From Methanothermococcus sp. Ax23 (GTDB taxonomy: Archaea > AGJL01 > Methanococci > Methanococcales > Methanococcaceae), in the NCBI RefSeq assembly GCF_049075655.1, contig NZ_CP157522.1:512001-576000 (forward strand): 64,000 bases of DNA, written 5' to 3'. Below are positions 13,237-52,024 of the stretch, piece by piece. The position numbers and the translations under genes are program-made. The notes under the pieces are model-generated. The model saw nothing but the letters and a program-made list of their open reading frames with translations. It did not search any database and was not told where the DNA came from. How positions within the stretch are numbered: position 1 is the stretch's first letter; the number at the start of each line of letters is the position of its first letter.

Positions 13237-13334
13237 ATTTTCGCTCTTTATGTTTTAACATGCATATTTGCCAATTACATTTAAAACTATTTTAGATATA
13301 TTTAAATATACAAATACATATTTATAAAATAAAA

Positions 13335-13409
13335 CGCCCTGGCCGGGATTTGAACCCGAGTCACAGGAGTGACAGTCCTGTATGATAGGCCGAGCTACAC
13401 CACCAGGGC
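13335..13409 (-). tRNA. tRNA-Asp (GTC)
   Basis: GCCCTGGTGGTGTAG...CAGGACT GTC ACTCCTG...GTTCAAATC. Confidence 0.95.
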
Positions 13410-13422
13410 AAATGTATAAAAA

Positions 13423-13542
13423 AAGGCTGACGGCGTCACCCTGTTCCCACCGAAAGGCAGTACTTAGGGTATCGCTGGAGGGCTTAATTTCCGAGATCGG
13501 AACGGGATCGGATGTGGCACCTCCGCTATGACCGTCATGCCA
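13423..13542 (-). rRNA. rrf: 5S rRNA
   Basis: ACGGTCATAGCGGAGG...CCGATCCCGTTCCGATCTCGGAAATTAAGCC...AGTACT. Confidence 0.95.
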
Positions 13543-13558
13543 AAAATGTTAATCGTAG

Positions 13559-13632
13559 CGGGCCCGAAGGGATTCGAACCCTCGACCGCCTGGTTAAAAG
13601 CCAGGCGCTCTACCAGACTAAGCTACGGGCCC
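13559..13632 (-). tRNA. tRNA-Lys (TTT)
   Basis: GGGCCCGTAGCTTAG...CCTGGCT TTT AACCAGG...GTTCGAATC. Confidence 0.95.
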
Positions 13633-13666
13633 AACAATTTCTATATAATCAATATAATTAATAAAA

Positions 13667-13741
13667 CGCCCTGGCCGGGATTTGAACCCGAGTCACAGGA
13701 GTGACAGTCCTGTATGATAGGCCGAGCTACACCACCAGGGC
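13667..13741 (-). tRNA. tRNA-Asp (GTC), second copy
   Basis: Identical to 13335-13409. Confidence 0.95.
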
Positions 13742-13754
13742 AAATGTATAAAAA

Positions 13755-13874
13755 AAGGCTGACGGCGTCACCCTGTTCCCACCGAAAGGCAGTACTTAGG
13801 GTATCGCTGGAGGGCTTAATTTCCGAGATCGGAACGGGATCGGATGTGGCACCTCCGCTATGACCGTCATGCCA
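13755..13874 (-). rRNA. rrf: 5S rRNA, second copy
   Basis: Identical to 13423-13542. Confidence 0.95.
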
Positions 13875-13890
13875 AAAATGTTAATCGTAG

Positions 13891-13964
13891 CGGGCCCGAA
13901 GGGATTCGAACCCTCGACCGCCTGGTTAAAAGCCAGGCGCTCTACCAGACTAAGCTACGGGCCC
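13891..13964 (-). tRNA. tRNA-Lys (TTT), second copy
   Basis: Identical to 13559-13632. Confidence 0.95.
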
Positions 13965-13971
13965 AATTATG

Positions 13972-14048
13972 TGGTCCGGCGGGCCGGATTTGAACCAGCG
14001 ACATGCGGATCTACAGTCCGCCGTTCTACCACGCTGAACTACCGCCGG
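13972..14048 (-). tRNA. tRNA-Tyr (GTA), CCA encoded
   Basis: GCGGACT GTA GATCCGC anticodon arm. Confidence 0.95.
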
Positions 14049-14071
14049 ATAGTGATTAATTAGATAATAAG

Positions 14072-14149
14072 TGGTGGGCCTGCCCAGATTTGAACTGGGG
14101 TCTCAGGATCCCAAATCCCAAAGGATGGACCAGGCTACCCCACAGGCCC
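14072..14149 (-). tRNA. tRNA-Pro (TGG), CCA encoded
   Basis: GGGCCTGTGGGGTAG...GGGATT TGG GATCC. Confidence 0.92.
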
Positions 14150-14171
14150 TATTATATATTCTGAAACATCA

Positions 14172-14245
14172 AGCCCCGGGGGGGATTCGAACCCCCGACC
14201 ACCTGATTACAAGTCAGGCGCTCTACCAGGCTGAGCCACCGAGGC
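14172..14245 (-). tRNA. tRNA-Thr (TGT)
   Basis: CCTGACT TGT AATCAGG anticodon arm. Confidence 0.95.
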
Positions 14246-48122: not shown

Positions 48123-48142
48123 CATATTCCGCAAGAAATCAG

Positions 48143-48455
48143 ATAAAATCACTCCGTGATTTTATTACTGTCCTTCGCTACTCGACGAAATCCTATGGAT
48201 TTCGTGAGTTCGACAAAAACCAAAGGTTTTTGTGAATCGACAAATTTCTTTGAAATTTGTCTCGATCAGCAAATCTTTGATTTGCTTCGATCGCTCAGAC
48301 ATCCCCGTCCGTCATACAAATCCTTCGGATTCGGATGAAAATCTTACGATTTTCATTACTCAAACCTTCAGTTCGATTGTAAAATCACCTGCGCGGAGCG
48401 AAGGTGAGCTACAAATTCCGAAGGATTTGTTCAGTCTCCTCGCTATCACTCGAAG
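48143..48455. repeat. array of about nine short palindromic hairpins
   Basis: ataaaatcac-tcc-gtgattttat; acgaaatcc-tat-ggatttcgt; acaaaaacc-aaa-ggtttttgt; gacaaatttc-ttt-gaaatttgtc; agcaaatc-ttt-gatttgct; atgaaaatc-ttac-gattttcat and others. Confidence 0.9.
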
Positions 48456-48547
48456 ATAAGAACAGGGCAATTCACCAATTAGCATAAAACCATGCAATAT
48501 AAAAAAAGTATTTTAAATAGCTTGTTACATTTAAACAACTTATCTAC

Positions 48548-49708
48548 TTAAATGAAACTTAATTTATTTTGATAATCTTCTAAATTTTTTAATGCTGAAT
48601 GGACGATACTGCTGGACTCATTATTTAATTTCATACCATATCTTGTAGATTTTGCCAAAACCTCCAGATGCATCTGTTCCAAGACCTCATTAATATCATA
48701 TCTATTCATTGAATATTCTAATGTTCTAAGGGTATTCAATATATTTTCTCTGATGATATACTCGGGCGTCTTTAATTTAGAGTTAAATTTGCATGCATCA
48801 ATAACTCCTGCGGCTATGGTGATGGCAAAATAATGTGTCATGATTGCAGTGGGTGACGATACATTAGATGATGCCATGTTACCCATATTTTCAGGCAAAT
48901 TATTCTTAATTTGTTCTAAAAATTTCCCAAAGTGTTGGGTATTTATTGGAACCTCCCCATATTCTTCAATTACATTCTTAAACGCCTTAATAGTATCCAA
49001 TATGGCCTCGTTAGATACTCCCCCAGGAAGTTTAAATCTTTCATTTAATTTGTATGCATCAATAATTCCTGCAATCATGATAGCAGTAAAATGACTGTTT
49101 ATATCTGCAACAGAGGATGAAACATCAGCAGGAACCACATAAGCTTTTTTATTGGCACTTTCCGCCAGTTCAACACATTTTTTTATCTGCTCATCAGTAG
49201 CATAATTTGTTCCATCTGTTGAAGTTCCGCTTATCACATAATGGCTATGCTGTGGAGTTCCAGGAACCGCAGCAGGATGCATTGAAGATATACCCACATC
49301 CTTTCTTTTTGTTCTGAGCTCTACTTCAAGTGCAGCATATAAAACAGCGGGGGATATTGTGCATGTATTTGCTATAATGGCATTTTCAGGGAGGTGGGGA
49401 ATTATATTTTTTGCTATTTCAATAGTTTTTTTTCCAAATGGTGTGAAAAATATGGCTATCTCCCCATGCCTTGCAGCTTCGATATCGTCTGAAACCACCT
49501 TAACCCCGGATTCTTCAACTTTTTTCCACATTTCCTCAGTTAGTATATTTTTGTTAGGTTCTGCAAGTACAACATCATGTCCTGCTTCTGCAAACTCCAT
49601 GGCAATTCTACTTCCGCCATAAGGTGCCTCCCCACCATAATTTTCAGGTAAATTTAATTGATTTACATACAGGTTTTGGTTTCCTGCACCATATACTGAA
49701 ATTTTCAT
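48548..49708 (-). CDS. HmdII/HmdIII-like ([Fe]-hydrogenase paralog) with duplicated C-terminal domain
   Basis: MKISVYGAGNQ.LY, PYGG, FTPFG, NTCT, SMHPAAVPGTP. Confidence 0.85.
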   Translation of the reverse strand: MKISVYGAGNQNLYVNQLNLPENYGGEAPYGGSRIAMEFAEAGHDVVLAEPNKNILTEEMWKKVEESGVKVVSDDIEAARHGEIAIFFTPFGKKTIEIAKNIIPHLPENAIIANTCTISPAVLYAALEVELRTKRKDVGISSMHPAAVPGTPQHSHYVISGTSTDGTNYATDEQIKKCVELAESANKKAYVVPADVSSSVADINSHFTAIMIAGIIDAYKLNERFKLPGGVSNEAILDTIKAFKNVIEEYGEVPINTQHFGKFLEQIKNNLPENMGNMASSNVSSPTAIMTHYFAITIAAGVIDACKFNSKLKTPEYIIRENILNTLRTLEYSMNRYDINEVLEQMHLEVLAKSTRYGMKLNNESSSIVHSALKNLEDYQNKLSFI

Positions 49709-49727
49709 GCATCCACCCATTTTAATT

Positions 49728-50039
49728 TCAATATGCATGCTCAAGGTCGATGTTAAGGATGTCTTTAACTTCGTTGAGTTTTTCGAGAAGCGCATTTCCT
49801 TTATTAGTTAGGATAAACCTACCATCTCTATCTTTTTCAACAAAATCATGTCGTTCGAGAAAATCCATGTATCTCTTAAATACCTTCCAATCTAAGTTTG
49901 CATAATACATTATTCTTGTTTTTTTACATCCTCCCATATTGATAGCATTTAGAATGCCAAATATTATCTCCATTTTATCCCTTCTATTTCCATTTAAACC
50001 ATAAATTGGCATGGAATAAAACATTTGAACTCTTTTCAT
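49728..50039 (-). CDS. winged-helix regulator (HTH_45-like)
   Basis: RRDKMEII..IL, KTRIMYYANL, LTNKG. Confidence 0.85.
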   Translation of the reverse strand: MKRVQMFYSMPIYGLNGNRRDKMEIIFGILNAINMGGCKKTRIMYYANLDWKVFKRYMDFLERHDFVEKDRDGRFILTNKGNALLEKLNEVKDILNIDLEHAY

Positions 50040-50589: not shown

Positions 50590-51012
50590 ATGGACACTAA
50601 AGATATGAAGATATTGAACATATTAATGAAAGATGGTAGGAAACCCTACACTGAGATTGCCAAAGAGCTGGGAACTAGTGAGAGCTCCATTAGAAAGCGA
50701 GTTAGAAAGATGGAAGATGAAGGCATTATCAAAGGATATAAGGTGGAAGTGGAACCCTCTAAAATTGGATATAATGTTGTCGCTTTAACAGGTTTTGACA
50801 CCAACCCCGAGGATTTTTTAACTGTTGCAAATAAGTTATGCGAATTTGACGAGGTTAAAAAGGTATGGACCTCAACAGGTGACCATATGATAATGACTGA
50901 AATCTGGGCAAGGGATGGTAGGGAACTATCCGAGATTTTATTTAACAAAGTCGGTAAAATCGAAGGTATAAAGAAAGTATGTCCCGCCATTATATTGGAA
51001 CAACTGAAATAA
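50590..51012 (+). CDS. Lrp/AsnC regulator, Ptr2-like
   Basis: [29 protein letters not shown]; ferredoxin/rubrerythrin context. Confidence 0.88.
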
Positions 51013-51021
51013 ATTAATAAA

Positions 51022-51465
51022 CTAAATTTCGGCCATTTTATCATGAACTTCAATTCTCTGTTCTTTAAACCATTTTCCATACCCTTTTACATCCATATTT
51101 TTAATATGCATAACTAACCATCCAATAATAAAGTTTAGTGCCTCTCTAAACTCTTTATCTTCGCCCTTCTCAATCTGTGGAGCTAAGGTATTTACAACAT
51201 GCCTTACAAAAAACCCGTGTATTTTTTTATGTTTTTCTAATTCTTCTTCTGGATAACCGTATCTCTCCATAACCTCTTCTTCATGTTTAAAGTGTTTATC
51301 AGCATAAGATACTACCTTTTCCATCAATAATTTTTTTGCTTCGTCTCTTTTACCACCCCTTAATAGATTATATATGTTATTTATTGTTTTAACAAGGAAT
51401 TTATGTTCCTCGTCAAAAGCAGCAATACCGGATTCTAAATCTTTTGACCATTTTATTATTTCCAT
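51022..51465 (-). CDS. hemerythrin
   Basis: W...LESGI..FDEEH, HFKHEE, HKKIH, WL..HI..MD. Confidence 0.92.
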
Positions 51466-51595
51466 AAAACCACTCCATAAATAGAACAAGCATTTACCAT
51501 ATCTCAAAATATATTCAATTATAAACATATGTAAATATATAAGTGCATAACATACTTATGTGCCCCACTTAAAAAAATAAACGACAAATGTATAA

Positions 51596-52024
51596 TTATT
51601 CAAAGTATCTTTCTAATATTCCTTTTAACATTTTTGCATGTCTTGCTTCATCTCTGCTTGATTCATCAAAGAAGTCATGTGCAGGGTCAATGTCCAATTC
51701 TTTTGCCTTTGTTGCAGCAGCTTTTTTCTCTTTGTTTGCCATGCATTCTCCTTTTAACATCATTTCAATGTTCTCTTTTAAGTTGTCTGAAATTACCCCG
51801 TTCATCTCAGCAAAGTGTGCTGCGTGTTCAGCTTCTTCAAATGCTATTCTTTTTAAAACTTCTGCAACTTCTGGGAGACCTTCTCTCTGAGCCTGTCTTG
51901 CCATTGCCAAATACATTCCAACTTCTGCACATTCTCCTTTAAAGTTTGCTTCAACTTCTTTTTCTAAGTCTGTTCCTTTTGTTGTTCCTATTTTGTGTTC
52001 GTTTATTAATTCTACATCTACCAT
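51596..52024 (-). CDS. rubrerythrin-like diiron protein (no rubredoxin domain)
   Basis: NFKGEC.E..MY, EEAEHA, DEARH. Confidence 0.9.

Follow-up and report, generated by a model that had tools for sequence, protein, structure and literature searches.

A long HmdII-type paralogue of Methanothermococcus sp. Ax23 with a putatively converted N-terminal domain and a partly duplicated helical tail

Analysis of a 64,000-nt stretch of the Methanothermococcus sp. Ax23 genome (contig NZ_CP157522.1, positions 512,001 to 576,000; this whole stretch is hereafter the window) led to a gene, here named hmdL, which encodes a long HmdII-type paralogue of [Fe]-hydrogenase (Hmd). HmdII is a paralogue of Hmd that binds the iron-guanylylpyridinol (FeGP) cofactor but is not catalytic, and hmdL is probably an offshoot of it that is functional and restricted to one lineage. 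The N-terminal domain of its product, including the cysteine at the iron-ligating position, is kept near-identical to that of the resident HmdII through recurrent gene conversion, in a tract that begins at the start codon and reaches the domain boundary, while the helical module of the dimer core has been rebuilt by an in-frame duplication of about 261 nt and the loss of its last two helices. The rebuilt tail evolves about four times faster than the canonical one and is still under purifying selection, and hmdL is inherited along with a small winged helix-turn-helix (wHTH) gene located 19 nt upstream.

To our knowledge, the function of HmdII and HmdIII has been unsettled for more than 20 years. 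In Hmd structures the pterin is seated on the central C-terminal unit, and titles in the Protein Data Bank (PDB) list HmdII with FeGP and with methylene-tetrahydromethanopterin (methylene-H4MPT). The C-terminal domain of Hmd mediates dimerization (PMC2739858), HmdII binds FeGP without catalyzing the Hmd reaction (PMC3087415), and the roles proposed for HmdII and HmdIII are those of a scaffold and of a methylene-H4MPT sensor (PMC7460606). A paralogue with an unchanged cofactor-binding half, a replaced second half and a co-inherited DNA-binding protein could help to separate the roles of the two domains and to probe the sensor idea.

Gene Identification and Family Membership

The open reading frame (ORF) that encloses hmdL is located at 48548..49795 on the minus strand, and the 5' part of this longer ORF overlaps the wHTH gene. 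The true start is likely the ATG at 49708 (MKISVYG), giving a protein of 386 aa, with a Shine-Dalgarno-like site (GGTGGA) ending 6 nt before it. The product scored well over the cut-offs of the NCBIfam HmdII/III models, NF009208 (433 bits, cut-off 258) and TIGR01724 (hmd_rel; 419 bits, cut-off 167.2), both of which matched in two stretches. Its score with the Hmd equivalog TIGR01723 (79.3 bits) is far under the cut-off of 341.45 and the product is therefore not an Hmd. Pfam recognized HMD_N and, again split into two stretches, the HMD C-terminal domain. Profile positions 1-190 are collinear with the protein, and Cys116 of the NTCT motif aligns without gaps to Cys176 of the Hmd of the same genome (the title of PDB entry 3f46 names a C176A mutant). 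An earlier note made from the letters of the window had described a conserved HmdII/III Rossmann domain in which NTCT, the position of the FeGP-ligating cysteine, is retained, and on both points it was right.

Structure prediction agrees with this assignment. In the full-length AlphaFold2 model the N-domain is confidently predicted, no block of 10 residues as far as aa 190 having a predicted local distance difference test score (pLDDT) of 80 or less, and Foldseek superposed this domain on 4yte, the HmdIII N-domain, with a root-mean-square deviation (rmsd) of 1.1 A and a TMt of 0.97. The best full-length matches were the HmdII structures 4yt2, 4yt4 and 4yt5. The same genome also encodes a canonical 342-aa hmdII as well as hmd itself, the latter adjoined by a putative radical-SAM gene that may be hcgA-like. 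An assembly artefact was considered and ruled out, as hmdL is found in a 2-contig genome, in G027 (a second species of the genus) and in five metagenome loci.

Internal Repeat and Remodeling of the Helical Tail

Residues 194-271 of the hmdL product are homologous to residues 281-350, at an offset of 87 aa. The best off-diagonal local self-alignment scored 95 (z=12.4), whereas 500 shuffled sequences gave 31.5 +/- 5.1 and at most 53. With each copy represented by a profile of three long-form sequences, hhalign aligned the two over 70 columns at 33% identity (probability 97.4%, E=1.4e-11). The repeat is also visible in the DNA, where two 19-mers lying 261 nt apart are identical at 18 of 19 positions and none would be expected by chance (Table 1). 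The significance of the repeat, which the earlier note had left to be checked, is thus established, and the DNA similarity that it had seen between the copies could be located.

The same note had the helical domain occurring twice, and this holds in part: the repeat is real, but only a1, a2 and the start of a3 are doubled and the last two helices are lost. A canonical profile built from 109 HmdII/III proteins of 336-350 aa matched the hmdL product twice: profile positions 1-252 fall on aa 1-251, and positions 191-295 fall on aa 278-383 (28 bits, 1.8e-10 for the second match). The profile of canonical residues 191-275 alone matched twice in each long form examined, namely our own, that of G027 and the metagenomic protein P0123 presented below. 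Within the 150-position canonical C-terminal part, hhalign placed copy 1 at positions 1-57 (up to about 72 via copy 2) and copy 2 at positions 3-101, and found no internal repeat in the canonical part itself (probability 0.8%). Canonical positions 296-341, i.e., the last ~46 residues with a5-a6, have no counterpart in the hmdL protein, and tblastn found no remnant of a5-a6 in the 425 nt downstream of the stop codon. The protein has neither a single complete C-terminal helical part collinear with positions ~191-341 nor two complete helical dimerization domains in one chain, as a class II ketol-acid reductoisomerase (KARI) would. Since copy 1 amounts to about half of the ~150 residues and copy 2 to ~100 positions, the dimerization domain was not duplicated as a whole. 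Read from these alignments, the event is an in-frame tandem duplication of ~261 nt (a1, a2 and the start of a3) together with the loss of the last two helices, and the C-terminal module is clearly remodeled.

In class II KARI and in 6-phosphogluconate dehydrogenase (6PGDH) the whole helical domain is internally duplicated. The hmdL product could by analogy be a monomeric pseudo-dimer, a single-chain Hmd-like sensor or carrier, which we regard as unlikely. The tandem repeat does lie within the module reported to mediate dimerization (PMC2739858), and the Foldseek neighbors of the protein have 6PGDH-, KARI- and prephenate-dehydrogenase-like folds, the domain-duplicated KARI 5e4r among them; remote matches comprised ketol-acid reductoisomerases, prephenate dehydrogenases and hydroxyisobutyrate dehydrogenases. 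However, the analogy with class II KARI, which the earlier note had drawn, would need two complete domain copies, and hmdL has a doubled half-domain with a second copy that lacks the last ~46 residues; it fails on this point, and the lack of a full domain in either copy weakens the pseudo-dimer. In the AlphaFold2 models copy 1 forms three helices and copy 2 four to five, with a linker of low confidence between them. The tail would consequently hold about 7-8 helices, far below two full domains and to be compared with 12 for the canonical dimer core if, as we read the sequence, each chain contributes six. The tail reached a pLDDT of 35-68 in the full-length model, for which the 31-row MAFFT alignment had misaligned the canonical tails across the repeat. 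When the tail was modeled alone (3-row alignment), mean pLDDT was 61 and the predicted template modeling score (pTM) 0.63, the latter hinting at some consistent packing; Foldseek of this tail model against the PDB gave no match at E <= 0.001 and the ESM Atlas gave no usable match for the tail. The low-confidence segment around the linker covers aa 266-290 in the full-length model and about aa 268-283 in the tail-only model. Given that the tail differs from the canonical one, the hmdL product would depart from HmdII in its quaternary structure, in its pterin site (altered or lost), or in both.

Gene Conversion of the N-Terminal Domain

A tract of 605 nt, from 49708 down to 49104, differs at only two positions (99.67% identity) from the canonical hmdII located ~340 kb away in the same genome (G000:C1:~222292-222896; positions 1652-2256 of locus L002). 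It starts exactly at the hmdL ATG, stops at codon 202 and contains Cys116. No DNA similarity is detectable past either of its ends, and the upstream DNA is unrelated. Over nt 1-603, the long and the canonical gene agree at 601/603 positions in this genome and at 588/603 (97.5%) in G027, while every comparison between the two species gives 522-526/603 (~87%). In both genomes the identity of the paralogues collapses past nt ~605, that is, at codon 202. According to the Hmd alignment, and to an N-domain of Hmd that presumably ends near residue 250, codon 202 is about where the N- and C-domains meet. Because the identity of the paralogues within a genome (99.7 and 97.5%) exceeds that between the species (~87%), the comparison indicates that gene conversion has occurred repeatedly, within the homologous half only, and that it ends at the domain boundary. 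As the N-domain is the same as that of HmdII, the hmdL protein would be expected to bind FeGP like HmdII.

This is a clean case of domain-limited conversion, with one half of the gene evolving in concert (two differences in 603 nt) and the other diverged beyond DNA recognition. A 2009 phylogenetic study attributed the species-wise clustering of the paralogues to independent duplications, and does not use the term gene conversion (PMC2739858). A full-text literature search returned no paper on a duplicated-tail Hmd paralogue or on gene conversion among hmd paralogues, with Fujishiro et al. (2015) and Watanabe et al. (2019), which may bear on this, outside its reach. The tract also has practical consequences, as an identical stretch breaks assemblies and can yield chimeric database proteins. 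The assembly of G033, a further genome of the genus that carries the long form, is broken inside the shared tract, producing four contig ends. In the database protein P0005 (352 aa), a canonical HmdII tail follows the upstream leader and the N-domain of the long-form locus; this protein is probably an assembly chimera across the identical 605 bp, or else a real recombinant.

Selection on the Tail, Its Wider Occurrence and Metatranscriptome Contigs

The ratio of nonsynonymous to synonymous substitution rates (dN/dS, or omega) was computed between this genome and G027, which are separated by a dS of about 0.6-0.7. Omega is 0.38 for the long-form tail (0.49 for copy 1, 0.32 for copy 2 and the end); the canonical tail has a value of 0.105, the N-domain one of 0.06. 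In the long-form tail, omega is below 1, with nonsynonymous change rarer than synonymous (Fisher p=5.6e-6). The tail frame of 185 codons is open in both species at a dS of about 0.68; substitution-only neutral simulations (5000 replicates) kept such a frame open in 0.9, 0.04, and 0% of the cases at 0.17, 0.34, and 0.68 substitutions per site, respectively. By these measures, the rebuilt tail is under purifying selection.

When the 191-aa tail was run with HMMER against all of 1.84 billion representatives, three proteins were retrieved, P0122, P0004, and P0123, whereas a word-based protein search with the tail found two close proteins only. P0122 and P0004 are fragments from a G033-like lineage. 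The third, P0123, is a metagenomic protein of 378 aa with a tail ~30% identical to that of hmdL, collinear across both copies and the linker, and it shows the same double match to the canonical profile. Its N-domain has diverged too, e.g., at the TPFG and NTCT.SP motifs. When the contigs of the genomes were scanned with P0123 there was no match, and a scan of metagenome contigs gave five loci, all ~95% identical to the window. Because P0123 keeps the two-copy architecture at ~30% tail identity, this architecture is evidently older than the Methanothermococcus pair and maintained by selection.

Metatranscriptome contigs from four runs of one hydrothermal-vent study span hmdL, including its unique tail. 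At position 49104, two of these contigs fork into the sequence of the canonical paralogue, and the wHTH-hmdL junction is bridged by one. These contigs give a weak hint that hmdL is expressed.

Distribution and the wHTH Partner

The survey covered 13 genomes of the genus and 27 from four other genera of the order. With the tail as query, the long form was found in three of the 13 (this genome, G027, and G033) and in none of the 27; two further matches of the query were canonical hmdII genes in their usual context. The wHTH gene stops 19 nt before the hmdL start on the same strand, and at E<=1e-10 it is confined to the same three genomes of the genus. In G033 it stands at a contig end, beside the first 50 codons of an hmd-like gene. 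The earlier note had hmdL co-transcribed with a winged-helix regulator; the regulator gene and its position are borne out, and co-transcription itself is plausible given the short same-strand spacing and the shared occurrence. In G027 the order is conserved as glycyl-tRNA synthetase (GlyRS, convergent), hmdL, wHTH, ferredoxin, Lrp/AsnC regulator, and hemerythrin. The complete genomes G026 and G032, which belong to the genus and lack hmdL, show no synteny beside GlyRS and gain of hmdL can therefore not be told from its loss.

Possible Function of hmdL

Several observations weigh against the reading of hmdL given at the outset. With an omega of 0.38, about fourfold that of the canonical tail (0.105), its tail is relaxed in comparison, and no confident fold was obtained for it, as described above. 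In G033, as well as in P0004 and P0122, a 1-nt deletion leads to a premature TAG near the end of copy 1, at about window positions 48905-48925 and just upstream of the linker (locus L006, G033:C14, ~300-360). The products would be a 269-aa protein that stops just short of the end of copy 1 and a separate copy 2 ORF of 105-112 aa, and hmdL may thus be dispensable or decaying in the G033 lineage, unless the gene is split or the assembly in error. The distribution is patchy, at 3/13 genomes of the genus, and the link to the wHTH gene rests on these three related, non-independent genomes. Finally, the RNA libraries may contain DNA (run X1 holds a 73-kb contig) and the contigs attest presence in the libraries rather than transcription.

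Taken together, the fast tail, the G033 frameshift, the restricted occurrence and the poor prediction of the tail are what a decaying duplicate would present, its tail drifting to a pseudogene and its N-domain intact merely via conversion from the functional hmdII. We consider this very unlikely, because the 185-codon frame stays open in two species (0.04-0.9% per lineage in the neutral simulations), omega is significantly below 1 and P0123 keeps the two-copy architecture; the Shine-Dalgarno-like site before the start speaks against decay as well.

Accepting hmdL as a functional offshoot of HmdII, the most attractive mechanism is that its product and the wHTH protein form a ligand-dependent regulatory pair, a tentative proposal that may well prove wrong. 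A role in sensing or carrying FeGP or H2, which the earlier note had raised, is at this stage conjectural. In a more specific and quite unlikely form, the pair would be a two-gene switch: the N-domain would report the occupancy of FeGP (or of an H2/CO-type ligand) and the self-contained tail, with no pterin-binding dimer core, would dock the wHTH protein, gene conversion keeping the cofactor pocket of the sensor matched to that of HmdII. If true, this would be the first direct link from an Hmd paralogue to transcription control of hydrogen metabolism. Alternatively, the long form could be a modulator subunit that pairs with HmdII (or Hmd) via the extra a1-a2, the heteromers altering the pterin site or titrating FeGP with the wHTH protein not directly involved. 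Identical N-domains and a canonical paralogue that is always present would suit a mixed complex, and the dimer-forming module begins with just those helices that were duplicated; nevertheless, tails only 20-40% identical to the canonical ones and the strict co-occurrence with the wHTH gene, which would be left unexplained, give this proposal slim prospects.

Genomic Neighborhood

Coordinates of hmdL, its parts and the adjacent genes are listed in Table 1. The ferredoxin gene is probably a transcription unit separate from wHTH-hmdL. Beside it, positions 50590-52024 encode a regulator of the Lrp/AsnC type, a protein with a hemerythrin domain and a rubrerythrin. The first two of these are syntenic in G027, and the neighborhood has an iron/oxygen-stress flavor. 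On the other side, the gap between GlyRS and hmdL (48123-48547) measures 425 nt, compared to only 82 nt in G027. Segments of 27-84 nt from it recur at nine other sites of the genome with 78-94% identity, and its content looks like a small dispersed repeat or an insert resembling a miniature inverted-repeat transposable element (MITE). Rfam gave no match on this 425-nt gap at gathering thresholds.

Matches to hmd_rel range from one to six per genome in the genus, with tandem arrays in G034 and G036. These arrays consist of three to four HmdII-like genes of canonical length, and in some of the genes the TPFG and PADVSS motifs are altered (L035, G034:C99:13500-23500; L036 and L037, G036:C17). In two places the arrays adjoin a FolE2-type GTP cyclohydrolase (PF02649, 263-265 bits), a hint of a connection with pterin biosynthesis. 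Where the arrays of G034 and G036 were examined, their paralogues had no wHTH neighbor. Elsewhere in the window, positions 13334-14245 hold seven tRNA and two 5S rRNA genes, among which a unit of tRNA-Asp, 5S rRNA, and tRNA-Lys is duplicated, the members of each pair being identically scored.

Table 1. Coordinates in the window of hmdL, its constituent segments and adjacent genes.
Feature	Position	Strand	Evidence or remark
hmdL, long HmdII-type paralogue	48548..49708	-	386 aa + stop (likely start); NF009208/TIGR01724 scores, start-site reading
N-terminal Rossmann-like domain of FeGP-binding type, putative gene-conversion tract, aa 1-201	49104..49708	-	DNA identity, Foldseek
Repeat copy 1, aa 194-271 (helices a1, a2, short a3')	48896..49129	-	Self-alignment, hhalign, profile match
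Linker between copies, aa 272-280	48869..48895	-	3' end of the low-confidence segment in both AlphaFold2 models
Repeat copy 2, duplicated portion, aa 281-350	48659..48868	-	87 aa downstream of copy 1
Copy 2, non-duplicated rest (remainder of a3, then a4), aa 351-386	48551..48658	-	Matches canonical positions up to 295
19-mer of the repeat as seen in the DNA	48793..48811	+	Encodes AGVIDAC on the minus strand
Partner 19-mer	49054..49072	+	Encodes AGIIDAY on the minus strand
Small winged-helix protein (HTH_45 / Sso10a family), 103 aa	49728..50039	-	PF14947 87.5 bits (cut-off 25.5), NF053610 79.9 bits (cut-off 60)
2x[4Fe-4S] ferredoxin, 67 aa	50284..50487	-	~245 nt upstream of wHTH; syntenic in G027

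Comparison with Known Systems

The closest relatives of known structure are HmdII and HmdIII, represented by 4YT2, 4YT4, 4YT5, and 6HUX (MJ1338 of M. jannaschii) and by 4YTE (the N-domain of MJ0715). The N-domain of hmdL is 63% identical to 4YTE at the rmsd of 1.1 A given above. In contrast to these proteins, hmdL has 386 rather than ~341 aa, its a1-a2-(a3) are doubled, the last ~46 residues are absent and its tail is 20-40% identical to the canonical tails. The genomic context differs as well, being wHTH and GlyRS for hmdL and roadblock/GTPase/methyltransferase for the canonical copy. With Hmd (TIGR01723) the protein shares an N-domain core that is 33% identical over 156 aa and the position of the iron-ligating cysteine, but it lacks the N-terminal insertions specific to Hmd and the alignment begins at Hmd residue 125. 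Like class II KARI and 6PGDH, hmdL combines a Rossmann-like domain with an all-helical dimerization module, inside which there is a tandem duplication, and remote Foldseek matches were obtained with 3ulk, 9bag, and 5e4r; unlike them, it has a doubled half-domain and a deleted end, and sequence similarity beyond the fold was not detected. As for the partner, the wHTH protein is set apart from other HTH_45 / Sso10a proteins by a conserved N-terminal extension of 22-25 aa.

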